Source: Lingula anatina
Taxonomy: Eukaryota > Animalia > Brachiopoda
Length of the DNA: 64,000 nucleotides
Direction: 5' to 3'
Assembly: GCA_051362555.1 (NCBI GenBank)
Contig: CM120640.1
Coordinates: 45,920,788-45,984,787, forward strand
Position numbers and translations under genes: made by a program. This document shows positions 37,483-57,577 of the stretch, piece after piece. The notes under the pieces are model-generated. The model had not been told where the DNA came from. It made no database searches and was given only the letters and a program-made list of their open reading frames with translations. Position 1 is the first letter of the stretch. Each line of letters opens with the position of its first letter.

Positions 37483-40400
37483 TTAAAACATGATTGGTTT
37501 GTCTTTGGTTTGGTCCATCACGTACTGTGTAAACCTCTTCAGGAACTTGGGATATTCCCGTTTGTACACAGCCCGTAATACTGAGGCCGGGGCCCAGCCT
37601 CCAGGGTTGACTGGAAATAAGAGTGGAAAACCATTTATATACATCTACATCATACATGCACTAAAAGGAAAAGGAAAAGGAAAAACAAATTATATTATGA
37701 TCACAATATTATTTTTATAGTAAAAAATGTTGTCATCTTTTTTTTCTATTGGTTCATAAACAGTTACTGTTATATACGAACTGACTATAAAAGGAAGTAC
37801 TGTAAAAAATGTGCATCAAATAATTACGCAGTATTTAAACATTTTAGATGACTCAATCATAATTACTGTTTACTAAGAGCTTTGGTCTATATATGCAGGT
37901 TGTAAGTAAATTTGTCAATCTATAATGATATAGAAGACTAATAAAAACCTTTCCACCATTACAGAATTCAAATATAAAACAGCAAATTGTATACAGCCAT
38001 GCAGAGGAAGCCATCATCAGTGTGTAATGGTGTTGCAATTTTGCTTATACAAATTACATCTGTTTGTTAGTAACGTTAACTATTGTTTTATGACATGTTT
38101 ATCCTATAATGCCTTCGTATCAGCAAGCTGTTTTTGAATAAATTATGTTTTCTTTTTGGTTGTGTAGTCAGATAAAAAGAATAATCCTAAACATGTTTCT
38201 TCAAATGAGAAAGTCATGCTACAGTGGATGTAAAGACTGAGAGGAAAATTCAGAGTCTTCAACAATTTTACCAATGTCTTGAAAGTTCAATCCTTGTCAT
38301 TATTTCAGTTCAAATAATGTCCAAATTTCCCTTTGAAGAACAATTAAATTGGAATTAGCAACACAGTGACTTTAGGCCAAGAAGAAATTTTCAAGACATT
38401 TTCCCCTGTTGTTTAAAGACATACGAAGTATACTTCAACATGAGCTAGATTCCTACAGCTTAAAAGCTGCAGTTTGGGTTCACAGTTTCGCCATGCTAGT
38501 CTCACCATTAGCTGCATAGGTAATGCGACAGGTTATATGGTCTCTTGTGATTTCCCCATCATGGCTGCTAGGAGGCTCCATAGACGTCTCGCACACCATT
38601 GCCACATTCATGTTGATGCGCACATTTTTTGATGCCTAAAATTATTCCAAGTGCCAAAGCAGACCAATAAAAAAAACTGCATGCACTCCCTGTTATCACA
38701 AAAAAAAAAAAAAAAAAAACAAAAAAAAACAAGCATAGGTACCTTCCCAGAGTCCCCTACTACAAAAAGAGTTAAACATGTACACATATTCTGTACCTGA
38801 TATTCCATGCAGACCTAAGAAATGGTTGGATGATTTTGCAAATATCACAAGAAAATTATTTATTTATCAATTTTTAATACTTTACATCTTCTTACTTTTT
38901 CAAATACAAAATTAGGACTGAAAATGCATATTTGTTTAAGGCAGTCTCTACGGTGACAAATGGCACCATTTCTTCTACGTGATGATTTGCAAAATCAGCC
39001 GTAATAAAATAAAATAAAATAATATAATAATATAATAAAATAGTAAAATGTTGCAGTCACTATCCTCCAGTATTCCAGTGTTAGTATTCAGTGCAGGCAC
39101 CATAAGCAATTTTCTTCTGAAAGTTTCGGAAATTTCTTACCGTTTGCATGATATTGTATCTTACAAGTTATATTTTCACGGGTAATGTTTCTGTCGCTTT
39201 GTGGTGGCTCTACCACAGTCTCGCAGATCATTGCAACATTCATTATAGCACGAATATTTTTTGTTTTCTCCTAAAAGAAAATATTCAAAACATACTGTAA
39301 ATGCTGAAAGTGTATTTCCCAACAAGTCATTCTGAACTGGAATCTCAAAACAAATCTGTACCTCCTGGTCTTCATTGTAAATATTTCTACATCAGTTCAT
39401 ACAATTTCATACATTTCAATGAATTTCCTGCAATTGAAAAACACAAAACCACTATATTTATTAATAATGAATGGTCACTCTTGCAATGCAAATGAATCTG
39501 TCTATAAACATACTGTGAAATTTTTATTTTGCTTATTACTTTAATCATTAGTGTATGAAAGCTGTCCTTTATTCTTAAAACTCTAGTTACTGTCATTGTA
39601 CTTCATCTGAGTATATCTCACTAAATATGATATTTCATGTAAAAAAATAGATATGTTTAACTTACATAACTATAACTGAATTTCAAAACACAGAAGCAGT
39701 TACATCTACCTGTGAATGGACAAAACATGAACTTGTACTGTGTCTGTAACCTGTCAATTGACATCAATATAAAATATACACATCAATAAATATATCAACT
39801 TACAGGGCACTTGTCATGATCAGGTATAGAGTAATTGCACACAATCCAGTAATCTGGGCCATCCTCGTCTTCATCTTCATTAGGCACATGCCTGATCTGT
39901 GTCCAGAACAGGGCCTCTCTCTGGGTGGTGGGCCACACCTTCTTGTGGATCTGATAACACACACAGGTGTCCTCTGAGAACCAGTCCAATACTTGAGCAC
40001 TTTCTAGTGTACCTGTGGGCAGAGTAATTGGGAAAGAATTGCATGATTTTGTAATGAAAAAATGTCCAAATTGCACCCTTTCAAGAATACCATTAAGCTG
40101 ATGAAATTAATACAAAATTACATGTTTGAGTAATTACTGCATTTAATCAAAAATAGATAGTTCTAGTCAAATTTATTTAATTTGGCTCAAATATCTGGAT
40201 GAACTGCTAGCACCCTTACCTTCCCACTCCATTCTGACATCTGGATTCCAGAAGTAATGGCACACTTCATGTCCTGTGATACCCTGGAGAAAAAAAACAT
40301 TCACACATTTATACAACCAGCCAGGTTATCCAAAAACAAAATTTAGCCAGGAGTAGTTTATTTAAGTACGACTTCGAGGTGCAGAAATGATTTCCCTATA

Positions 40401-43400
40401 TGCCTTTGTTAGCCAATCTGGGTATGGATACCTGGGCTAAATAAAGAAAAGATCAAATTTAGTGAGGTGGTCTCATAAGTTGTCTAATTTTGAACCAGGC
40501 AAAATTATAAACTGAAAGGACTGTAGCAACATAAAACTTCAGTTGTATGCCAGTATAGGTTTCACAAAAACTCTTGGACAAAATTTCAAAAATTCACAAA
40601 GATCAAGAGAATTTCAACTCTGGCTCATTATGTGATAATTACCACAAAGTCTGGAATGTTATAGAAATGCTATATATGTTAAGTGAACTTAAACATTTTT
40701 TCATCTCTAAACAAACAAACAAAAAATTAAAAAAAAAAAAAATGGGTGACTGGATCGGATTGCCTAACAAACAGACTGATTGCACTACCCACCTTGACTG
40801 TATGTACAGCTTTGAGGGGGTCAACCACCATGCCGTCTTCCTCCATTTCTCTCTTAAACACTTTCATCTCCCCCTCGTCATGTATCAGCTCCCATGTGTT
40901 GTCTATGTCTAACTTGGCTGCATACTTAATGTGTTCTGCTATTACTTCATTTATCTGGAAATTAGTGGCATAAAAATTAATGAATTCAGAATGAAGTGCA
41001 TGCACACAAACACTGACTGATGCCCTGTCAACTCATCATCAATTTGGAAAGAGACCTCTTTCAATGATTACAGAATGTCATCAGGGATTAAACGATGTTG
41101 CTGTTACATAAATTCCCATGTTGCCTATGGCAAGTTAGACAGTGTGTTTGACTTGCCTGGCTTTTACTTAATTAATATGAAAATGTCTTGCTATTAATGT
41201 ATCAATCAAATGATAGTGCTTTGTAGTATTGATAGTGTTCATAACCTCCTGACTGGTACCTATTGTGAGCATATTAAAAATTTTAATACCTATTTTTTTT
41301 TTTGGACGTATACACGTTTTTTTTTTCTTATCTAGTATGGGAGTGCACTTGAAGTGTTCTGCAGACATACATCTATCTTTCTTTTTAATGAGAGCTTTTC
41401 TAGAAACAAAATTTAAAATGTGTATCTCAGCAGGATTTGTCATGTTTTTCACTTTAGTCCTGTTAATATACAGAAAGCTTAGATCTATTTACTTACTTCT
41501 TTATAATACTTATGCTTGGGACTAAGGGAAGTTTTAGGGGCCTTTGGAGGCTTTATTTTCTGTATGCTCAATTTCTGAAATATAAAAAATGCACAGTTGC
41601 TGAATTATATACATATGTAACAGCATTCTACATGAAAATATGTATATCTTTGCACTACTACTTCAGATTTTTCAAAATGATCTTGCACAGATAAGAACTT
41701 AATATCAAAAATTACCCAACTACAGTCATTCATTCCTTGCAAATGTCTCAATACTTACATTCTCCACTTCTTTATCTAGTTTATCTAGTGATGCATCGAC
41801 TGCATCGAAAAATTCATCTTCATTAATTGCACAATGTGGTCCCTCCTGGAAGAGCCAATAAACCCTTTTACTGTCTCCACTTTTCATATAACCATACACA
41901 GCATCATGTCCAATAACATTAACCAGGCTGTTTTCCATGAAATCTCCCAACAATCAAAGTCCAGACAATATCTTTTGTTATAAATCATGAGAAATTACCA
42001 ATATTACACACTGAAAAACAATGAAAACCCATTGTTGTTTGAGCTGTGGGACACTTAGCAGGCTGTTTCACATAAAAAATGGCTTCTAGTAATGACGGTT
42101 GTAAATTTTAGTCAATCTGATCAGGGTAAGCTACTGAGAAAGACAATTTACAAAGAAGAATTATGGCATTAAGATATCCATTACTAGCTGCAGACCAAAG
42201 AAAATTGATTCTGTGTATTTCTGATTTCAGTAAAGTGCATAGAATTTGCATCCAATCCCCCCCCACCCACCCCACCAGTTGAACAACACAGAGGTGTGCA
42301 CATAAGACACCTACCTCATAATCAGGTCCGCCTATGACAATGGGTGGTTTCTTGCTATCTTGTAACAAAGCTTTGTAGGCTTCTTCTATCTTTTTCCTTT
42401 TTTCAGTCTCTCTCTCTGATCTTTTCCTCCAGGCGTCTTCCCTCTGTGACATGAGTTCTATACAGTGGTTGAGCGTGGCCACTATGCCTGCTGTTGTAGC
42501 CTTGAATGTGAAGGCTTCTCCCTTGAAGTCTATAGCATGTGCTCCGTGTTGGGAAAAAATTCCAACTGAAAGAAATTTAATTTTAAAAAGTTTGAAGAGT
42601 TGACTATATATGTTAGATGTAAGCAGTTCTCACAAAATTTCTTAGTTTTTAATAATTAGGACTAATTTTTTTCATAGGTTAATTTATAATTTTTCTCTTC
42701 TTTTGTCTGTGTTGCATTTGGCTGGCTACTACTACTACTACACTCACAACTGCCTCATTAGCATGTATGGAAACCCTTGAGCAATCAAAAGTTTGATGGA
42801 GTAGAAAAAAGAGAGAGAAGAATATCAACTTTTCTTTGGCCTTTCATTAACATTCAAAGTTATCAACTCCGATATCAAACGATGGAAGTGGAGACTAAAT
42901 CCAGTTTGTTTTGCTTTGATAGCCATGGGGTATACTTGAAACTTCAAAGGCATTCAAATGTGTATGCATAGCCTAGAGGCAAAGTAGGATGTATTTTGTG
43001 ACTGATTGCATAATAGGACTATTATATGTCAAGTTAAAATACATTTTATCTGCATTAAATGTAAAAAAAAACTCAAGCGGGCAGGCTCATAACAAGGAGA
43101 GGTGACAGTGAATTATATTGGATATTTCATTTCATTTTTTAAATCTAGAAACTGCATTGAAATACAGTATGTAGGGTGAATCTAAAAGGTGAATTTGACA
43201 CATAAGGTATTGACTGGTAATAAAAACATGGCATAAACCTACAAATTAAATAATTATTCAGTATCAATCAATCATCACTTTTACCCTTAACAATAATTTA
43301 ACTGATAATTTCTGAAATACAAGCAGAAAATGCAATCATAACAAATGTTCTTTTATATCAGACCAAAAGCACCCTGGTGCTTTATACCCTCAGGCTCTGT

Positions 43401-44301
43401 TCAGTGTCAGAGTAATTGATTTTTGTAGCTGTACATGGTACTTTGATGCTTGGCTTCTCTGCACTTACACCTACTTAGATTTAAAGAACATGAAAAACCT
43501 AGATGTGTTTATATAAAAACCAATCACAAAATCCTAATAACGCACAACTATTTCTCACTGTGTTTTGGCAGCAGACACCATGATGCAGTCTTAACTTGAA
43601 TCATTTTATCTTCCACTGCTACCACCTCTCTGTTCAAAGATTAAAGGATTAGGAATAGTGTCCTTTTTATCACTCAAGTCTTAGGCTTCGTTCACATGGA
43701 AAGTCTATTTTCTAAAAATCTATTTTCTATTCGCGGTATCTTATGATCACGGTCTGTGCCGTAATTACTGGCAGCGCGAGCTAGTTACTTATAGTAACTT
43801 TTAGGGCACAGACTGTGATCACAAGATATACCGCGAATAGAAAATAGATTTTTAGAAAATAGACTTTCCATGTGAACGAAGCCTTATTTCCTTCAGTACA
43901 GTATGATATGCCATCTGTGTCATCGTGGCAAGCCAAACATGTACGGTCATACTAACATTAAATAAATTGCCCTTGGATGAACAGCTTTTTTTTTGTCTAA
44001 TAACACATATGGAAAACTGAAGTACATTAATAAGAGTACCAGCAGTTTCTCACTTATGTTTTTAAAAGGCATACTCGAAAAGGCACTTTTAATTTTCAAT
44101 GTCATCAAGTACAACACAGTACAACACAGGAATTGAAAGGGGTTCTGGGGGTTGGTTTTATTGAGAACACCTGAACTGATCTTCATCAGAGACAGAAAGT
44201 TTTGTATAATTTGATATTCAGGACAAATCTAGATTAGCCCTTTCCATGATCTAAAACATTGGCTTTTTTTCTGTGCTAAAGGTGCAAATAAATTTCAGCT
44301 G

Positions 44302-44351
<50 letters not shown>

Positions 44352-47300
44352 ATTTCAGCTGATTTATTGTGTTAAAGTTGACTGAAAGCTTTAGTGTACA
44401 AGTGAAAACCATCCCCTAGGTGAATGATGTAAGGGTAAGAGAAATGGAAATGTTCAGATTTAGTTGAGTGAAAAGACATAAGTGAAAATTGTTTTCCCTC
44501 ATAAATCTAAGAAAACAAGGGACCATACAAAATGGGTGATTAAATAAAGGAATTAGAAAAAAGTTCATCAGTTTTATAATAATATGGATGTATCTTGTGA
44601 TTAAAATACTGAAACCCATGCTGAGTGAAAGAAAGATTATTAAATGAAACATTCTGCAAACTGGTTCAAAATATAAACCCCACAAAGATGAGATATTGTT
44701 TCTCCCTCCTCAACCTTTTTTCCAAAAAGTTTTACAAACATACAGGCAAAATCCACCCAAAAAATTTCTATTTTTACTAAATCTACAAGTCATACAACTT
44801 CACATGAAGAATTTTCAAAGGAAACATATTCAAGACCAAATGTTTTACACCAAAGTTAATTACAAAATTTCAAAATAACCTACCAAAATCTTCTCCTTTG
44901 GACAACTTCTCACTAAACAGACTGTTAGGAGCATCCTTGGAAGATGGTGAGCTTACTCTTGGCGTATCATAATCATCCACATCATCGATGTCATCACTAT
45001 CCACTGAAAACATAAATAAAAAGAATCACATAAAATCTCTTAATTCCAAACGATAATCCTCAATGGGACTGAATTCGGTGCTACAGTTAAGAAATCCCAC
45101 CTCAGTCTGGTTAACATTCTAGGCGAGGACTACTGGGGCAACCTGGATCAGAATGATACCACTTGTTTAGTATAGGCATTCCTAGTATCACGCCACATCT
45201 GCACTGTTAAGAATAGCTGTACAGTCTATTCTGGTGGAGGAGGTAAATACATATGATGTTAGTAATAGTATTATGTGCAACAGACTGGTTCCCAAGTCAA
45301 TCATAATCTAATTAAGAGTAAGATACCAGACAAACGCCACAGCCTTGCACCTATATAGAGGTCTGTTCAGACAAGGACTATTTAAGATGGAAACAACCTA
45401 AAACAAAAAGGTTGCAGGAAGATCCTGATCAGCAATGTTAAATTATACAGATTTATACTGACGTGAATCTGGCAGATGTATTGGCCAAAAAAAAAAGAGT
45501 TTTCTTTACATACTCAATTCCACAGATTCACCAGTTCAAAAAAATACTTGTCTGTTCAGACCCAATAAAATACAGATGACCATATGGTGTGTTAGATACA
45601 TCATTTCATCTCTAGAGATCACAGAAATACTTTAACTAGTGTCTAAAGGCGCTTATTTTTACAGATTATGTCAGAACCATTACTTTAGTTTCTCTGTACT
45701 TTTCTACTGAACAATCAGAAATGCCTTAGGTCTGTTCACTCCATGTCTTAACAAAAGACAACAGTTTCATCACATTTGTCTAATGACTAGCCCAAAGGTA
45801 TGGTTCAATACATGTATTAAGACTTAACTGATTGTGTTTAAAAATCAATTTAAACTGACAAATACAAATTTTCTATTTTAAGTATGGGCATTATTCCATT
45901 AACATGCATTTGAGTAATAATAAGAAAATATTTGGGTGGAAACTAGTAGGCTAAAGACAGCAGCCATGATATTTTTGCAAACTGATTTTAGCTTAAAGCA
46001 ATAAATAACTAACATTCAATAGCTGACCACTTAAACAGTAATCTTGATTTTTCAAATGATAGCCATTTTGTTGGTTTTTAGAAAAACAGCCACCTTCAGT
46101 AAAAGAGAAAATGATTACATCAAACTTATATGTCCATGAAGGGCAAAAAGGGAGCAACCCAAAAGGCAAAGCTACCACCATATTTACAGCATTATCTCAC
46201 AAGTGCACCCTCAAATATGATTGCCAGACTTTCCTGGCTACATTATATCTACATTTGTCCACTAGAATAGCACAAAATGTACTGCCTGTGTAAATGTGAC
46301 TTGCAGTTGTCATAGTTTTATCTCCACAGTATCAGATAACAAGTATTTTCTACACCAATGAAGTCCACATATGATCATGTTTGCGATATAGGATTCTATC
46401 ACTATCTTTTAGGGGCTTTTACCTGGGAGAAGAGGGGATATGTGTGGATATGCCAGTTATCTACTACTCAGAACAAATGTCCAACTTGGGAGACATAAGC
46501 CTAGGATATATAGAATCAAAATCAAAAATTCTGTTTAGTTGGTATCTGATACATTTTGAAAAGCTGGACTGACTCCAGACATATGTATTGTACTGGCAGA
46601 CGGGGGAATCCAATGTAGCCTTAGATCCTGGTAGCAAATTTTGCCCGCTAGAGTTGGAAAAAGACCAATTACTAGTAGATATTTTACATGATTTTCCACT
46701 TAGAATAGTAGGCAGAATTAATCATCATATGGCAAAACAAATTTTAAATCTGAATGCATTAATTCCAACAAAGATATAACGCCATAATGGGTACCAAGAT
46801 AACTTAGAGGGCATTTCCAGAGATTTAGATCAATCTTACTAGATCGACCTAACTCCCTGGGGTTCACGCTAAATTGCAGTCAGCCGACCGCAGTTAATTA
46901 CCCCAGCTTGTAATAGGCGGGCGGAGATTTAAGCCGGATTATCTGACAGTAATCTAGTGAGACTCCCCACGGGGATAGATCGATCTAAAATCTATGGGAA
47001 TGCACCCTTAGATTAACTTTAATTAGCATGGATTTCTATGGGAGGAAATGAAAAGCTGGAATTGCAAACAGGTCCCATGTAAAACACAGACATACATTTG
47101 GCAAAACTATCTATTGTTGAAATTGCCAATGACTAGAAAGTCCAAAACCTACTAGGGAGTATACCACGTAGTTTGAAATACATTTGTGGATCTCTAGGCC
47201 AGAGGAAATACAACCACTTAATACTACTGCATGAATAGGTCTACTTCTAGTCAGCTGACACTGACATCAGACAAAATTTACTGCACTATAGCAGATCATG

Positions 47301-50300
47301 TGATTGTGAAGGATTGCACTGCCTTCCTAAAGACAGGCCCTTCTCACATCCAGCACTTTACTGAAGAGATACAGTCTACACCAGGTCACCCTCAGACACT
47401 GACAACTTAATACCCTGGCTATTACGTGAGAGAGTCACCTCAACAACACCTTTATACATAGATTTGTATCTGTTTTATAAAGTGCCTATTCATTCATTCA
47501 TGAGATACAACTGTCTACTGATGAAAGGAATAAAATAGGTGGAGTGCAAAAAAAACTCAGGATATTTTGTAACAATGCTTAGCTCTTGACAATGCCAAAC
47601 TTGTGGTACCATGTCTGATTCTGCACAATTTTTAAATAGGTCTTCACTGTTACTAATTGTTACTATCTGTGCTACTTTGTTGCTATCTTTAATATACATC
47701 AATGACTGAGGGAAGATGGAAAATGTGGCCCTTATACCCACTGGACAGACAGACAGACAGACACACAGGCAGACAAATAAATAAAACCAACCATGATGTA
47801 AGCCAGCTGCTTTCATAGCCTCTGCACAGGCATCAAAGTAACCCTGAAGGGTGTCCACCTGCCGACATAATATGTCCCTGAACGTTTCCATTTCTGCCAG
47901 CTTTTCTCGCAAACCTCTTCCTCTCTGAAACAAATTTTTATGCCATACACATATATTATATCAAAACGAAGTATAAGTCAAAATCAGATACATTGCTGGG
48001 TTCACTCAAGGACAGGATCTCTCTACGTAAAATTGAATGATTTATCCAAGTCAGAAACTTGAATTAACCCAATGATACATGTTTCAAAAACCCAATTAAA
48101 TATTTTATTTCTTACTATGCCAGAGTGAGCCCAGCCCAGACATGTACGTTTAATACCAAAGAATGAGAATGCTATCCTTAAGTTTCATTGTATACATACT
48201 GTAGCTATGAAAATTATGACCTGACATTATGTGATCTGGTTCCTTTTCTATAGAAAGATCAATCCACAGCAGTGCATTGCACACACAAACATGCACACAC
48301 AAATTTTAATCATGTAGAAACTATTTCACTTGGAAAAAAAGATGCTTACCTTGAAGGATGATGTTGACTGTGTGGACAAACTGGTCCCTGATGTAATGGA
48401 TAACATGGAGCCATGTCTTCGTAGGCTGTTCTCGCTGCCATAGCCAGATTCTGTCTGCTAAAAATGAACAAGGAAAAAATTACAACCAGTGATGACAATG
48501 TCCTAGATATTCATTTAAATAATCAATAACTAGGTAGAGAAGCCATTAAAAATATGTACTTACTACATCAGCAAAATGCTGAAGTGAAAGCTTTATAAGC
48601 AAATGATTTTAATCACAGCAGCAACAACAACACCAACAAAAATGTATAGTCAAATTTAAACAAAATTGCTTTTTTGTTCAATAATTTGGAGGAGTAGGAG
48701 ATGGTTTTAGAATTTAGTTGCAAGTCAGTTCAAATGGTCAGTGCTCAACAGGCAAAAAAGTGTTGAGGAGATGGATTGCATGCACTCCCTTGAACTTGGT
48801 CACTATTTCCTGTTCTACTTTATCAAGCAATCCGTAAGCTTTTAGCACTTTATTTTCTTTCTTTTTTTTTTTGTCCGAAGCAAAAAAGGGGGTGTCATCT
48901 GCTGCTGCACTTGAAGCTTGGCCACTAACTTAAAAACAACACTTCACTTTGAACTCAATTTTGGTAGACCACAATATTTAATCGAAGCTGTAATTTTTAC
49001 TTTATTTTGTCCACTCTCACATACTTACAGTGCACTTATCCCTCTTTCATATGAAGTATGTTCCACTTATCAGACTCATAAAGTCACACAAAAACTATAT
49101 CAAATCAGTCATAAAGAGTTCAAAAGGTAGGCATAAGGAGAGCATATGTCCTCTCAAATGAGGCCACAATGGATTTGTGGCAATTTACTGAGATGTAATT
49201 TCAGTCTACTTTGTGTCCCTTCATTTAATAACCACAGTGTGACTGTCTGTAAGTTATAATGACAGAGCCATATTCTGAGTATGACATAAGGAGCTGTTGC
49301 TTGGGCCATCCTACTAACCGCTGGCATTCAATGAGGCCTTTCATTTCTTAGCAAGTGAGTATAACCTTTCCATATGCAACATTTTCTATTTGCTGAAGTT
49401 ATAATGGAAAACCAGGTGATGTCTAATGATAACTGAGGACATCAAATATAAAAGGAAAAACATGGGTCAGACAATGGCAGAGGACGTTGAGTCACCAACC
49501 TATAGATTGATAGGACATATTGATCGTGACTCACTAATACCATTGTGAAATGATATGACAGCAAGTGCTGATGTACAGTGTTAATACCTGCATGCAGTGA
49601 TAGGGGAGGTTGGGAGTACTACCTTTTTGGCTCAGCAAGTAAAACCTCCATTCTGCCTCACAAATTTAATTTTTCTTGAAAGAGATGCACAGCTGGTTGG
49701 ATGGGTGTAGTTGGTGCAGGGGTGGGGGAGTGTGGGGGGTGGGGGGTGGGGGTGTCCACCTGATAGATAGGAACTCACATTTATTATCTTAGTTGAGATA
49801 ATCTGCAATTTGACTCTCAAATTTCTGATATACTTGTGGGTTGGGAGGAGGGTTGTGTGATACACCAGCACCATGAGAAAGAAATGCCAGAATACCTTGA
49901 GTGTCCAAGGCACACATTACCAGAGGTTGGCAATGTATTATTTGACATACATACCAAGAGAAAGTACTGGCATTTCACAAAAACACATACCTAAAACCAA
50001 ACAAAGTATATAGCCCCATGGTCACATAACATCTCTAGGTATGTAACCATACATAGCAACCTTCGTATTATGGATGAAAAACAAATTTTCCTCCATATTA
50101 ATAATCCTGCACACATCATCATGTGAACCTGGATGTTACATACCAGGGAAATACTATAGGTATCATGCTTACTTCAAAGAGTTCAAGGTATCTGCACTGA
50201 GGGGGTTAATTGACTGTAAAACCAACTTATTTATGCCAGAGCATTCCACAAGGCAAAAAACATTGCCAAAGGCAGTGAACCCTTTTCTACTGTTTAGTTT

Positions 50301-53300
50301 TTGCATGAGTGCAAAAACAGATAATCAAACAAGTGCTATTTAGTTATACTCTTGGTTTGCCACACACACTTTAACCTAATAGACAAGTGTCAGAGAAACT
50401 TCATTTCCCATACAGAGTTGAACATGAATGAAAGATTTATAAGCAGAATGTTGATCAGACATCAAAAGAAATGGGCTAATGGTGATTCATGTTTTATGTA
50501 TAGATTTGTATTTCTTTACATAGTGGCAAAATTTGATTGCCTATTTATTCATTTATAAGTTATGACTCTTTACTGATGAAAGGAACAATATTTAAGTGGA
50601 GTGAAAAATCTCAAGATATTTTTTATAGTATGGAGCAGCCATTGTAAATGTAAGTATGCAGTATCAGTAATTCTGGTGGTAGCTAAACAAACAACTACAA
50701 GACAGAACAGCCCTTGTTCATGAGTTTCATAATATATTATTTTGACCATGCATAAAATGGATACAGTTTCATAGTCCAGTTCCACCTGAAAGGTTTTTCA
50801 TGCAAGAATGTAATTAACATTTCATTCTTCTTTTAAGAACAGGTTTTGGGTCAGGTAAATGGTGACTAAAAAGCACTTTCTTCTAATGTGATAGTCCATA
50901 AAAAATGGCTAATATTATAAGTAAATCAAACTGAAATTTTGCATTAAAACAACTATCATTATCATAATCAATTGGTTTAGCAGAAGTAACACAGGCAGTA
51001 TTTCTGAAATAATTACTAGGAACTAGGAAGCAATGATTTGGTTTATTTATCACCAAGTGAATTTGAAAGAAGGAGAACTAAACAGACAGTGAGAGTTGGA
51101 GCATACCATTGTATTTCTGGATCAATTAACTACCAGGTACTTGACAAGGAGTGGGAGTATAATCTTGACAAGAAGACATCCTTATATTCTGAAGGTTTAT
51201 TGTTCCGAGGGTCCGATATTCCAAAGACTGTGGGAGCCAGGTTAAGAAATTGACCATACTGTTCTGAGGGCCCAATATTCCAAAGGGTAGAGGGTCCGAT
51301 ATTCCAAATGCTTCTTAGACTGAAGATCTGCTATTCCGAAAGAAGTTATTGATGCCATAGCAACACGTATATGCTTTTGCTTGCACGTGTAGGAAGGCAC
51401 TTTTAACTATTTTTTGCTGTGAGATTTGCTGCTCCTTCCTGCGCCATTTTGTTGTCTGCACTCATATAATATGGCTCATAAGCTCATATACATATCGCTT
51501 CGGAATAGCGGACCCTCGATTCATTGGTCCCTCAGAACAGCCGCCCTTTGGACAAAAGTCCCTGGGATAACGGACCCTCGGAACTTAAGACCCTCGGAAT
51601 ATAGATATGCACCCTAACACACAATTGAACAATCAGGATCATCCTAACTGTACAACTCCATCATGTTTTGAACTATTGAACATTTCTCTTTTAAGAAATG
51701 CACCTTCATTTGTTTATATCAAAAGGGGGTGAGATGCAAATATTATGACTTAATAAGTTCTTCTGGCAGCTGCCAAAAAAATTAAGCATTGTAGTCTGTA
51801 ACACTAAACCATAAATTATTCTATTTTTATGTTTCTAAATGCTTTTTTAATCCATCAACTGATACCAATTTAATGTAACATTACTTCAGCACAAAATGCA
51901 ATCAATATAACATTACAGCACAAGAGTCTCGAGAGATATATGTTACACTCTTTATTTGTGTCAAAACATTTCCCTCCCTATCTGTTATTGATGCAGTCTT
52001 GCAAAGCAAATCTACCCAAGAGCCATGAAAGTGGGGAAACTGCCAAACATGATGCTCACAGAAGCATTTTTCAACATGCAACTGGAAGCAACTAGATATA
52101 ACTAGTATTGTCAATCACCTAAGTGCTGATTGGTATGAATCATCAGAAAGACAAATTTTAAAGCAGCAAGCAAATCCATTTTCTATTGAAACAACTCACT
52201 TACAGTTACTTATACTAAAACGGGTTTCAAATATACTAGTACAAAAATGTTATGTAATAAATTTGGCAAGCCTAGAGATGCACAGAAAAAGTTTAAGCCT
52301 TGAGCCACACAACTTATCAGAGAAAATTCAAGTCTTATCTGAGATTTAATACTTCAAGTTAATAATAAATATTTAACGAAAAGCAAATAATTCAGGGTAG
52401 ACAGACATGTAGCAATCAATACAGAAGGAAATATTATAAGCACTATTCAAATTACATTCACACAGGTTTTGCAGCATTCCAACTTAAATCATCAACTGAA
52501 GTTATAAGGACTTTTCACAAGCAGTGTTCCACCTTTTTAGCAGTATGCTTTGGGATGTCCTACCATGACATGTAATGACGATTTCTATAGGAGACATCAC
52601 TCTCTATCACAAGAATGTTACCTAATGTTTGGGTGAAAGTTCTATAGGCTCTTCAACATAGCAGAAATAGGATGAATGATGAGCAAAGCCTCAGTGAGTA
52701 GAAACAACCTACTGCTTATTAATAAGCCATGACAATTACAGTAGCCCCACTTAGATACTAGACAGTCACTCTCTCAAAGCTGAATACAAAAGATGGAACG
52801 CTAAGTTGAAACAAAAGGCCTACTCTGATCATTCCCAAACAAACAGCAGACACTTTCTGTGTACAGCTACAATTTATTTTCTCAAATTCAGGTGGCCTAC
52901 TGCTGAGCTGGTGACTATTCCTACTGGAGGTCAAAGGCCCATTTCACAAATATCATGAATTTTTTCTGTGCTAAAACTGATAAAATTTCATTCTGTAAAT
53001 GATTGGCCCAGTCTTATTGTAGCTGATAAACCCAAACAGGCTGCTGTTACCTCAGCTAATGGTAATTTGCTCAACGGGACTGGCTAGCCGCTATAGACCC
53101 AATATAAGGAGAGCAGCCTTTAGATTCTTTGGCTGAGCTGAATTTTTGAACCTTTCTGTGAAAGAAGTCCCGCAACAGTTCAGAGCCTAGGAACAGCTGG
53201 TAACTAGAACTACTGTCACTGATGCTTTGGGAGTTGGATGCTTTGGTAGTTTCCTGCCCTGCCGTGGACTACCTTTCAAAATTTACTTTCTGGCAGCACT

Positions 53301-56300
53301 GGTCAAGTTCCTGTATGGTGTACATTTCACACATCAATACTGTAATCCCAATATGAATGATATTTATTCAAAGAGCCTCCTGAGTACACATCCAATTTAA
53401 ATACAGTTTAATTCCAGTATTTACACATCTTTCAGCTTACCCTGTGTGTTTCTAAGGCTTCCACCCACTTCTGTCTGGCCTCAGCATTTTCTGCTCGAAG
53501 GTACCAGAGACAGTCATTTACACTGACGTCAAAACGGCACTCATCGTATGGATGGGGCTGAAAAAAAAAGCAAATATTGGTTATAAAAAATGGATTGTGT
53601 GTACATTAAACAAAGCATTAATATCAATTATTAACGTATTCTTTCAAATTTAAATTCACCTAATATACGTAGCACACATTTTTTTCTACCAGCTAAATCT
53701 CTGTAGATATTATCCTACTCTTTAAGTGCCAGTGTAAACAATCACAGGATTAGTGCATGAAGAAAAAACCTCCCTTCCTCCCAAACACATTGCATGACTA
53801 AAATCATTAATAAATTAACTAATAAATAATGAAATGACTTATTGAACATTCTGGCACCTCACATCCTAATATGAAATATCCAGACCAATAGAACATGGAA
53901 CACCTATATAAATAATGGATATATAGGATTTATTACTGAGCAGTTGCTGCTTGCATGTGATGGTAATGTTAACGACTTGATCAATAAAGCCTTTTTGCAG
54001 CAGATACATAGTAGAAGGTAAGTGTCTAAAACTATGGCAACAGCACTGCTTCATCCATTTGCTGTCAGCAGCAGAGATGATTGCCATATAAGTGGAATTG
54101 ATTTCAACATGTACATTTTTGATATAAGGTCAGCAGACAGGGAAATTGTCCCAGCACTGGAAGGCATAGGGAGCGAAATATTGTTCAGGAAATTTGATTG
54201 GATTTCTTTCGCAATGGTCAATGTCAACTTCATTTATTTGTATTCCGAACATGTCTTTAAAAATTGACTTTTTTAATTTCAGTCAGAACAAGACACCACT
54301 GTGCTTTCACAAATATCATTTTTTTAACAGCTTATGTAGTTCAAATGTTATTAAACAAAGTGTCTCTATGCCACAAATGCTTGCCAATAACAAAATTTGC
54401 CCTTTTTTCATACACATCATTGCAAATTTTACTTTAAAACTGTACTAAAAGAAATATTTTTTAGATGAGAATAGACTAGGCTTTTGATTGCAGATCAAAT
54501 ATCTCCGACCCACTTAAAAACAATACCCACTTATTCCCTGATGGTCTACCTGTCTACACATACACTGCCCCTGCAGGGGCCTAGCACTTAAACCTCGGAG
54601 CTGAGATTTGATCTGTTAAATGGTGCTTGTGAAACAGGGAGACCATCAGGGGACTAGGTGGCTTGCTTTTAAATGGGGTCAGCCATATTTAGATCTGTTC
54701 TGGATGCACTCTTAGTAAGCACAAGGCATTATGCAACATATGACCCTGTGTAAATGATAATAGAACAAACATCTGTTTTAACAGTGTCTTCCATCAGCTG
54801 GGTAAAGCTTTTCTACAAAAAATATATCATAAACACAGGTCTATGGTCCCATTAAAGAATTCCTAGGAAAACCACAAGAGTGCACAGTTCCATGACTCAC
54901 TGTGACCTTAACAGCTATGTAATGTATTCAATCAAGACTGCATGCATTCTTTCTCAAGTTGTGTTCTAATCAAGTTTGACCCAGAACCAGGAAAAGGCCA
55001 AACTCCTTTAAACTGCCAAACATAAATTAATCTTTTTTATGAAAGGAAAGGGAGTTTCTTATAGGTAGGTAATCCCGCTCAGTATTCCAGATGCTAGGAA
55101 CATTTCAGGTTTAACTTAACCTTACAAAAACACAACAAGAATTTGTCAAGTGCCATGTCAAGCCTACCCAACTAACAGACTTGGCACCGAATGATCCAGA
55201 ATTCACCGGTATATTGGACCACACTACCCCTTTTCAATGTGTGCGTTAATACTCATTTTGAAGTATCAGAAGCGACACCGCTCTTGTCTAGCATGCGATG
55301 TGATAGCGATGAGCAAGGTTGAAAAGTAGTGCATCTCATCTCAAAATTTGTTCCGGGATATGATACTGTGAAACGTGCACTGATGCACACCTTGAAAACG
55401 GGTATTGTGGACCGATCTACCACTGATGTAGGATCATTCACTGCCGAGTCTGATAGTTGGGTAGACCTGCGTGTACATTTTAACAAGATTGACTGACCTA
55501 AATTTTTTACCCCTAATTTATTTCAGAAATGATCAACAGAGGAGGGTTGGGTTAATAATGGTTAAAAGGCATGTCAGAAGTACTAAAAGTGATAACAGGT
55601 AATTTACAAAACAACCCCTTCAATGTGGATAGGATAGTCTCTTGTGGTGGCTAAATAATCAAGGTCAATGTGATTCAGATGACAAGTATCCAGTTTTAAG
55701 AATCATATAAAAAGTTGGGGCTCTTATAATTTATCTGTGATTCAATGAAAACCAAATGCAATTGAAAATCCAGTTTTGATCCATTCAGAATGTTAATAGT
55801 CCTGTTATAATATTCTCCAGTGCAAGTCTATATTCAAGTGTTTTGTAATCTCATACCCCTGGAGCAACTGTGAATTTTGGCAGCTTGTTATATTTAACAA
55901 TACATCTACATTAATTATTGGTTCCCAATTTTATGTATATAAATTATTTTGGTGGCGGTGGATCATAGTAAAGACAACCTATTGCATTCCTCTACCAAAG
56001 TAACTCATGTCAGACAAAAACAGTCAGACGCTCAGCATTCTTATTTGATGCATCACTATAATTGCAGTTGTTTTCCCAGGTCTGGCCTGTATGGAATGTC
56101 CAGCCATTTGTTTTCTAATTACTGGATGTCCACTTCCATCATTCTCAGCATTCCACTCTCAGTGAGGTATTGACAGAAGCCACATATAATACAGCAGTCA
56201 TGTGGTCCCAGGGGCCTCAGCCATGAGATATCAATGCTACTACTAGTATTTCTTACTATCAAGGTTGGTTGTTGTAAACAGAGCACCTAACATTAGAATA

Positions 56301-57577
56301 CTCTATATGGATTTCAATTATGAAAAAGCAATGATCACAATTCTATTTGTCAACATGGTATTATTATTAAATTACCAAGTCCATAACTTAACTATTTTTG
56401 AAATTTTATTCAGATATGATGATGAAATTTGAATATTATGTCACCTGAAAGAATAAAAGGGACAGAATTTCATGTTTGTGTTACTTTACAAATGACACCT
56501 GAACTAGAGATTGATTCTTTAAAATATAGCTGTTTTAAACTACATGTGAAAAAAATGCTTTTTTTCATTTAGGCATTCTTTTTAAAGACCATATAAAATG
56601 GTCAATCTATCAACAAACATAAAATATGTAGATATCTTGTCAACTAGATGATAAGCATTACATCTTTTTCTAATATTTTGTTTCAAGAATTTGGTTCTTA
56701 CTTAAAAACCAGTCTTTTGTTTCTTTTTATAAAATAAGGGCAGTATTTGGCACTTACGCACCCCCCCCCCCCCCAATCCCTAACTTATCTCTTTAAGTAC
56801 TGGATTTAAGATTTCTTTCTAAATTTGGTTGTGTTGGAGAAGTTGGAGAAGTCTGTGTTATCCAAGTAAATTGGCTTGCAATTTGAAATGCATGTCAATT
56901 TTCAATGTTTAATAATAAAAATTCAACCAGTAGCCAATTTGAATAGGAGACTGAGGTCATTTTGAGTGTGCACTGGAAAACTGGTCTTTTAAGTTTTGGG
57001 AGCATACTTACTGCACAAATGCATGTACAGTATAAGTACTTTTAGCGGTATGTCAACAAAAGCTTCACTTTACTGGTACAACCGATCTGCAATATACTAA
57101 ACCCAAGTTTTCTTCAAATTTATATGGCTCGAAAATAATATTTCCCAGAAAATCTTACTCAAAATGACCTTTTCAACACAACACAGCTAGTAAGCTTCAC
57201 TATCTAACGTTAGGATCCCTCCACTACGACGATGTCGTAATTTGCGTAATGGCACTGGGTCATTATATCATTAAATTATAAATCATTGGGTAAAGATCTG
57301 ATGGTGGGAAATGAAAATGATAATCCAAATTTACCCGAATTGATGCCCTGAGCAAGCTGACAGCACCACGACACCCAAAGGCCGTTTCATTTTCAGATTT
57401 ATAGTAACTGAGAGTGGCATCTTTGAGTACAAAGTAACGATCCTGCCAACCGTGGATGTAATTCGTCCATTTACTGAGTGTCTGCTGCAGTTCATATGGA
57501 AAAGTTATGTCGTCTTCAAACTCATCATCTTCCTCTTCATCAGTAAGACTAAGGGCATCCTTTTCCTCGCTCATCAT
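37483..57577 (-). CDS. CERT1: Ceramide transfer protein (PH - serine-repeat motif - coiled coil - FFAT - START), ~609 aa
   Basis: Exons (minus) 57577-57335 ([19 protein letters not shown]), 53557-53441, 48457/48454-48350 ([26 protein letters not shown]), 47924-47792 ([23 protein letters not shown]), 45003-44884, 42565-42315 ([15 protein letters not shown]), 41845-41759 (FFAT EFFDAVD), 41574-41497, 40954-40793, 40283-40220, 40012-39804 ([10 protein letters not shown]), either 39270-39141 or 38635-38506, and 37610-37483 ([27 protein letters not shown]). Total 1830 nt. Confidence 0.97.
38506..38635 (-). CDS. CERT1: CERT START-domain mutually exclusive exon B
   Basis: attttAG|...|GTgaga; 130 nt, phase 0 to 1; [43 protein letters not shown]. 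Confidence 0.9.
39141..39270 (-). CDS. CERT1: CERT START-domain mutually exclusive exon A
   Basis: cttttAG|...|GTaaga; 130 nt, phase 0 to 1; [43 protein letters not shown]. Confidence 0.9.
43684..43883. mobile_element. PIF/Harbinger (Tourist-like) MITE, young
   Basis: Near-perfect ~75-bp TIRs GGCTTCGTTCACATGGAAAGTCTATTTTCTAAAAATC... with TTA TSD at 43681-43683 and 43884-43886. Confidence 0.9.
44289..44364. repeat. (ATT)n tract between 16-bp direct repeats
   Basis: TAAATTTCAGCTGATT at 44289-44304 and 44349-44364 encloses pure (ATT)n. Confidence 0.9.
46807..47007. mobile_element. Harbinger-type MITE
   Basis: Imperfect TIRs GAGGGCATTTCCAGAGATTTAGATC...GATCTAAAATCTATGGGAATGCACCC with TTA on both sides. 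Confidence 0.7.
51172..51615. mobile_element. Decayed foldback-type element with inverted arrays of a CCGAGGGTCCGnTATTCC motif
   Basis: Repeats GAGGGTCCGATATTCC (51207-51340) are mirrored by GGAATAGCGGACCCTCG/ACGGACCCTCGGAA (51500-51605). Confidence 0.65.
54490..54698. mobile_element. Older MITE-like inverted repeat
   Basis: CAGATC..GACCCACTTAAAA..CCCTGATGGTCT.CCTGT pairs with ACAGGGAGACCATCAGGGG..TTTTAAATGGGGTC..GATCTG. Confidence 0.65.

Follow-up and report, generated by a model that had tools for sequence, protein, structure and literature searches.

Two alternative copies of one START-domain exon in the CERT gene of the brachiopod Lingula anatina and their recurrence in a second invertebrate lineage

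Introduction

Tandem duplicated exon substitutions, in which homologous exons of the same phase and near-equal length are used one at a time and mostly exchange residues conservatively, are described as ancient, often tissue-specific and recurrent in orthologous genes, with an enrichment in ion channels and muscle genes; the word 'lipid' occurs zero times in the main text of that description, as far as it is accessible (PMC9741552). A closely comparable case within lipid metabolism is that of coq-2, whose exons 6a and 6e switch between ubiquinone and rhodoquinone, have an equal, non-triplet length (134 nt) and replace part of a lipid-handling core. The coq-2 pair is found in several invertebrate phyla, its common versus independent origin is left undecided, and coq-2e is credited in the available text with two residues next to the substrate site that are invariant across all lineages, and with a proven function (PMC7434440). 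In OGDH, exons 4a and 4b likewise exclude each other, as do the members of other steric pairs.

Here we analyse an exon pair of this kind in the CERT gene of Lingula anatina, located in a 64,000-nt stretch of genomic DNA that we refer to throughout as the window. The two exons are homologous and adjacent, share the same phases, have canonical splice sites and are each spliced to both constant neighbours. The pair is an instance of a known splicing pattern that we have not found in print for CERT, and it differs from the enriched classes in belonging to a lipid-transfer protein: our literature search, with most subscription journals outside its coverage, returned no report of a CERT exon pair and no such pair for a START lipid-transfer domain. 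It resembles coq-2 in its equal non-triplet exon lengths, in replacing part of a lipid-handling core and in a spread over more than one lineage that would fit one origin or several, and it differs in that its function is predicted where that of coq-2e is proven.

Results and Discussion

The gene occupies the minus strand of the window, with the following features (window positions):

37483..57577, minus strand: entire CERT coding span; each isoform has 13 coding exons, to which the alternative copy adds one; PH domain, FFAT-like motif and START domain
39804..40009, minus strand: upstream constitutive exon, phase 0 at its end
39271..39803, minus strand: intron before exon A, 533 nt, no TGCATG
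39141..39270, minus strand: exon A, the less used of the two mutually exclusive copies, encoding 43 aa with Ala at human position 521 and Gln at 552; junction reads in runs X7, X8 and X9
38636..39140, minus strand: 505-nt intron separating A from B, with TGCATG twice (at intron positions 330 and 456) and TACTAAC once (at 55-61)
38506..38635, minus strand: exon B, the more used of the two mutually exclusive copies, also encoding 43 aa; joined by reads in 8 of 8 runs
37611..38505, minus strand: intron after exon B, 895 nt; two TGCATG (positions 503 and 846) and a GCATG 10 nt past the donor
37483..37610, minus strand: coding portion of the last exon, covering the Omega4 loop and helix alpha4, phase 1 at its start

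The product is an orthologue of CERT (STARD11). Both isoforms score above the Pfam cut-offs for an N-terminal PH (PF00169) and a C-terminal START domain (PF01852), their PDB matches are CERT PH and CERT START, and Foldseek ranks 1-19 are all CERT START (E to 1e-30), with STARD10 following at 7e-13. Between the domains, P0001 carries an acidic EFFDA stretch, an FFAT-like motif by the usual consensus. Five of the six residues listed for the ceramide head group in the accessible part of PMC11228987 (R442, E446, Q467, Y482, N504 and Y553) are identical, the sixth, Tyr482, being Phe as read from the PDB alignment, and ceramide transfer is predicted. Human CERT (CERT1/STARD11/COL4A3BP; PDB 2E3M series and 5JJD) has the same PH plus START architecture and the hairpin discussed below, with 53% identity and a TM-score of 0.94 over START, and the introns flanking the exon lie at equivalent positions in fish and insect genomic fragments, as read from alignments; the human gene holds a single copy of this exon where Lingula holds two. 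The cassette exon of the known CERT-L/GPBP variant lies outside START. CERT1, COL4A3BP and STARD are not among the human tandem-exon substitutions tabulated in a supplement that does include the controls PKM, TPM1 and OGDH (PMC8373072).

The coordinates of the two homologous 130-nt exons (39270-39141 and 38635-38506), their AG/GT borders, phase 0 to 1, open frames and translations were all confirmed as given in a preliminary description of the locus, and a profile search of the 64-kb window with the exon found exactly two copies. Both match human CERT START in the PDB over the same 39 residues (E 8e-10 for A, 5e-8 for B). Exon A is 100% identical to L. anatina collagen type IV alpha-3-binding protein isoform X2, and the RefSeq isoforms X1-X4 of this species form one cluster, with exon A in X2 and X4 and exon B in X1 and X3. 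Both isoforms are already part of the automatic RefSeq annotation as X1-X4, though our search returned no paper on them. The earlier account of the reading frame stands: inclusion of both copies leads to an early stop, ending 62 nt before the last junction, and when neither copy is used the altered frame runs into a stop within the last exon. Elsewhere in the gene, a NAGNAG tandem acceptor at the third exon (48455-48460) accounts for the one-Gln difference between RefSeq X1/X2 and X3/X4, and protein record P0006 has 40 residues of exon 44873-45004 exactly twice where the window has a single copy, which probably reflects a faulty model or assembly elsewhere.

The same exon is doubled in a second invertebrate lineage. 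A metagenome scan by last-exon patterns, which would miss most annelids since their last exon differs, confirmed 86 loci, of which 80 were kept. Within these, the exon profile had no hit in 16, one in 57 (many of them spliced transcripts, unable to reveal a second copy), two partial hits in three, where an intron splits the exon, and two tandem copies in four, namely L050, L060, L061 and L062. All eight exons of these four loci have AG/GT borders, run from phase 0 to 1 and are open over 118-133 nt, and double inclusion leads to a stop 107-113 nt before the last junction; a transcript of this lineage, L002 (P0173), uses the upstream copy. The introns of L060 and L061 are 12-15% apart, which makes these two close relatives, so that the four loci amount to three distant lines. 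Eight loci span the upstream exon to the last exon with their introns, and five of them are single-copy, including the mollusc-like L045. In a tree of the flanking sequence the second lineage groups as a single clade (95/86) that lies within neither the mollusc nor the main annelid clade and has no supported sister; our guess, and only a guess, is that it represents bryozoans. Genome contigs scanned with an annelid-type alignment gave 0 loci. Among other animals, no further isoform pair with the same upstream flank and a different exon was present in 254 proteins covering flank and exon, nor subsequently in 357 of 474, the only pairs being the Lingula isoforms and two intron read-through artefacts; this protein set includes annotated isoforms of several molluscs and spiders and is blind to unannotated genomic copies.

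Three features of the surrounding sequence were observed in the course of this survey. The upstream exon of L050, L061 and L062 is without the intron at window positions 40216-40010, which L045 and L048 appear to have. Downstream of CERT and on the opposite strand, L050, L057, L058 and L060 hold exon fragments of a common coiled-coil gene, presumably GKAP1-like, which has no match in the window; no downstream neighbour gene common to this lineage and the window was found. Most annelid-type CERTs (P0016, P0017, P0023, P0024, P0047, P0049, P0052, P0083 and P0089) have an altered start of helix alpha4, with loss of the Tyr of VYKREY, at an otherwise conserved site that adjoins the membrane gate.

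As modelled, the exon is the beta8-loop-beta9 hairpin of START. A fold computed from a 77-sequence alignment (mean pLDDT 77.6, the single-sequence fold being unusable at pLDDT 38) gave a TM-score of 0.94 against CERT START and places exon B at residues 525-567, with a strand at 529-543, a loop, and a strand at 558-569. The beta8/beta9 loop is described as crucial to the PH-START interface in the accessible text of a docking paper that cites Prashek 2017, and L532, V533, P535 and E537 are placed there at or near that interface (PMC7729066). With human numbering anchored on Y553 in the PDB alignments, the corresponding residues of A and B are Val/Ser at 532, Val/Met at 533, Pro/Pro at 535 and Gln/Ser at 537 (535 and 537 being assigned by reading those alignments), that is, three of the four differ. 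The loop of exon B is one residue longer than that of A and carries a net charge of -3 as against -1, and its Ser532 and Met533 are absent from all 52 other sequences of lophotrochozoan type. In the second lineage the loop of the downstream copy is 2-4 residues shorter (13-15 instead of 17) and has lost its Pro-Pro motif, and an altered loop in the downstream copy is, at the level of sequence, a trait common to both lineages.

The cavity is less affected. Simulations show hydrophobic contacts of A521 and I523 with ceramide (PMC11228987, accessible part), and V525 contacts a docked ligand in the cavity (PMC7729066, likewise). At the published cavity positions within the exon, A and B read Ala/Ile at 521, Met/Met at 523, Val/Val at 525 and Tyr/Tyr at 553, such that one of four differs, and both copies retain the head-group Tyr and the strand core. 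The preliminary description had aligned residue 521 correctly and had rightly noted the retention of Y553. Its proposal that the swap rewrites the ceramide pocket is possible but overstated, one position in four differing; the differences around Y553 probably lie outside the pocket, residues 552 and 554 being expected to face away from the cavity by strand alternation and neither being mentioned in the accessible part of PMC11228987. It also overlooked that the same exon holds the PH-binding beta8/beta9 loop, where the equivalents of L532, V533 and E537 all differ.

A change in PH-START autoinhibition fits these data better than a pocket switch does, given that three of four PH contacts differ against one of four cavity contacts. 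Exon choice would retune the START loop that binds and silences CERT's own PH domain, with the pocket change being the smaller one: the isoforms would differ in how strongly PH and START hold each other and hence in Golgi targeting and transfer rate, and the Ala/Ile difference at 521 may in addition alter, to a modest degree, how the tail fits or is released. That the main effect falls on PH-START regulation is the reading we prefer, tentatively and with somewhat less than even confidence; loops vary more than core strands, and loop differences are expected anyway, without any functional change. The broader proposition that the two isoforms are functionally distinct in one way or another is probable.

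Another possibility is that exon choice mainly switches lipid selectivity or release through the size of the cavity, by Ala or Ile at 521 and, in the second lineage, by Val versus Thr or Ala at 525. By analogy, this is what the coq-2 pair does for its own substrates. A521 and I523 contact ceramide in simulations, and the V480A substitution cost about 1.2 kcal/mol in the available text of PMC11228987. Ala521 is unusual for an invertebrate, occurring in 0 of 52 other lophotrochozoan-type sequences and in 11 of 11 vertebrate ones, and Val525 is replaced by Thr or Ala in 4/4 downstream copies of the second lineage. Yet Lingula varies just one of the four named cavity positions, Ile or Val is the invertebrate norm at 521, and that residue is no fixed marker, the downstream copy having Ile in L060 and Ala in L061. 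Fixed cavity residues of the coq-2 kind that would separate upstream from downstream copies are not found across both lineages, 521 being Ile or Ala among downstream copies and 525 differing only in the second. The human cavity, moreover, accepted very long ceramides in simulations (PMC12979188, accessible part), and we regard a primary switch of lipid selectivity as unlikely, if worth serious consideration.

Both copies are spliced in the animal. Eight Lingula RNA runs were chosen by species label (X1-X5 and X7-X9), 6-30% of each was read, and joints with fewer than three reads mostly do not feature among the listed ones. Reads joining exon B to the last exon number 14, 9, 2, 11, 8, 15, 21 and 27 in X1, X2, X3, X4, X5, X7, X8 and X9, respectively, and those joining the upstream exon to B 12, 7, 9, 15, 14, 12, 18 and 9 in the same order; exon A is joined to the last exon by 9 reads in X8 and 3 in X9, and to the upstream exon by 2 reads in X7 and 4 in X9. 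The junction-read check that had been suggested thus found both copies joined to both neighbours, B on both flanks in 8/8 runs and A in 3/8, with 18 reads for A versus 203 for B among 221 listed junction reads. No A-to-B or skip-both joint is listed in the eight runs, where at least three reads are mostly needed, A is rare and decay could hide double inclusion. Together with the RefSeq isoforms and the second lineage, the junction reads back the proposed use of exactly one of two selected exons, and that the pair is real and expressed is close to certain.

The A-positive runs X7, X8 and X9 all come from one study, P3, in which A makes up 15% of the listed joints, and in X8 it reaches 9 of 30 downstream joints; run X1 has zero depth on exon A. 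The contrast between studies has p 1.7e-5 when unlisted joints are taken as zero, 0.015 for downstream joints with run X1, 0.19 for fully listed rows alone and 0.25 in the worst case, and the P3 animals are genetically more distant from the window sequence. Sample-dependent regulation of exon A is suggested. Across the introns around exon A, polyA runs included, a read depth of about 1-4 extends over 38714-39521 and falls to nearly zero at 39522-39723; this pattern hints at slow splicing or at a cryptic acceptor near 39513, where no joint is listed.

Selection on the copies was assessed from their divergence and from variants among the reads. Over 41 codons, A and B share 59% identity; pS is 0.75 (saturated) and pN 0.33, in line with the earlier claim of purifying selection on both, and R520, T531, Y553 and A555 (human numbering), invariant in 52 other lophotrochozoan-type sequences, are kept in each. 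The saturation of synonymous sites and the retention of all invariant residues argue that A has long been under protein-level selection. Read variants are synonymous in 2/2 cases on exon B; exon A has four, two synonymous and two conservative replacements, and of 14 listed for the constant exons, 10 are synonymous and 4 are replacements. In the second lineage the downstream copies compared with one another have pS 0.81-0.95 and pN 0.33-0.40, and between L060 and L061 the 118 nt of that copy show 6 changes plus one in-frame gap of 3 nt, compared with 136 changes over 989 nt of intron (p 0.005).

These observations also bear on a further reading, under which the copies are near-equivalent, A being a minor duplicate that stays in frame since broken versions would be harmful, or one that tunes transcript level by unproductive splicing. 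The low share of A in the junction reads speaks for it, as do its two conservative amino-acid variants and the fact that, in runs without listed A joints, reads on A continue into the next intron (4/4 at 39124 in X2, X4 and X5; 2/2 in X3). The saturated divergence of A and B with every invariant residue kept, the share that A reaches in X8 and the persistence of two open copies over saturated distances in the second lineage all argue against it, and we consider near-equivalence rather unlikely. An assembly artefact, with alleles laid in tandem, or one dead pseudo-exon deserves practically no weight and is refuted by the junction reads, for although odd models of the gene exist (the P0006 repeat, not in the window), 59% protein identity with saturated synonymous sites lies far beyond alleles, X8 and X9 each hold joints for both copies, and intronic depth between the copies is low.

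Exclusivity would be enforced mainly by the reading frame, with double inclusion giving an early stop and, presumably, nonsense-mediated decay; the frame break and early stop hold in all five loci (the window, L050, L060, L061 and L062). The 50-nt rule for such decay is not known to be established for brachiopods. Steric exclusion through a distant branch point does not fit the window, which in this differs from OGDH 4a/4b and other steric pairs: the 505-nt intron ahead of B has an AG-free zone of 41 nt, and such zones measure 16-23 nt in L050, L060 and L061, the steric limit being about 50 nt by the distant-branch-point criteria given in the accessible text of PMC7969005. The 71-nt intron of L062 may be short enough for steric exclusion. 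A perfect TACTAAC, one of four such words on the minus strand of the window, lies at 39080-39086, 55-61 nt past the exon A donor, and is unlikely to be B's branch point since the AG-free zone before B is just 41 nt; it could be a Quaking-type site. No strong docking-site/selector RNA pairing was seen in the window, where the five longest among 64 inverted pairs have a complementarity of 70-74% and an AT-rich sequence. The inter-copy introns of both L061 (2426-2538) and L060 (749-863) contain an inverted pair of 18-25 nt, 76-83% complementary, that would shorten the intron, with no covariation seen.

The choice between copies may involve TGCATG. This word occurs 4 times in 1401 nt of the two introns after A versus 9 times in 16153 nt of the ten other CERT introns (Poisson p 0.008, in a post hoc test where it ranks 12th among hexamers); pooled over four lineages it occurs 5 times in 1039 nt between the copies (0.5 expected) and 0 times in 2121 nt before them, while being missing from the introns of L050 and L062. 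Under the Rbfox position rule, as set out in the accessible part of PMC11874969, inclusion of A would be promoted and that of B repressed by sites lying between the two copies, where an Rbfox-type, cell-type splicing factor would bind to this effect. The two TGCATG after B would favour B, and the Rbfox picture is not clean.

Whether the doubled exon arose once or twice was approached from the order of the copies and from exon trees. The order is alike in both lineages, the upstream copy having Gln at 552 and the downstream one Thr, Ser or Ala, and the downstream donor starts with GTGAG in 5/5 loci; Gln552 is found elsewhere only in annelid-type sequences and one further row. The like order and the near-limitation of Gln552 to annelid-type sequences argue for one origin. 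Two origins are favoured by the best exon tree, which pairs the second lineage's own two copies at 87/87, unstarred, and by the recurrence of such events in orthologues (PMC9741552, available text). In this tree of 35 rows and 42 columns, p-AU is 0.27 for A with the upstream copies, 0.36 for B with the downstream copies and 0.40 for A with B, and five constrained histories, a crossed control included, all fall within 3.0 log-likelihood units, none being rejected. We regard as improbable the full scenario of one ancient duplication before the split of brachiopods and the second lineage, perhaps also annelids, yielding a conserved CERT splicing switch that would set PH-START autoinhibition and ceramide tail fit by cell type. 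Were one ancient origin true, annelids would have kept or favoured the upstream (Gln552) copy and molluscs the downstream type, and the exon pair would be a rare genomic marker for lophotrochozoan relationships as well as a natural probe pair for how CERT is switched on.

Conclusions

The CERT pair still exemplifies a familiar kind of splicing in an animal that has been little studied, and its functional effect is predicted. The doubling and retention of the same exon in a second lineage suggest that the swap is likely useful, whether it originated once or twice. CERT sets the flow of ceramide out of the ER into the Golgi, and the mutual shut-off of its PH and START domains and its chain-length limit are live questions. 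A protein that comes naturally with either of two versions of a hairpin and is otherwise the same offers a ready-made test of both.
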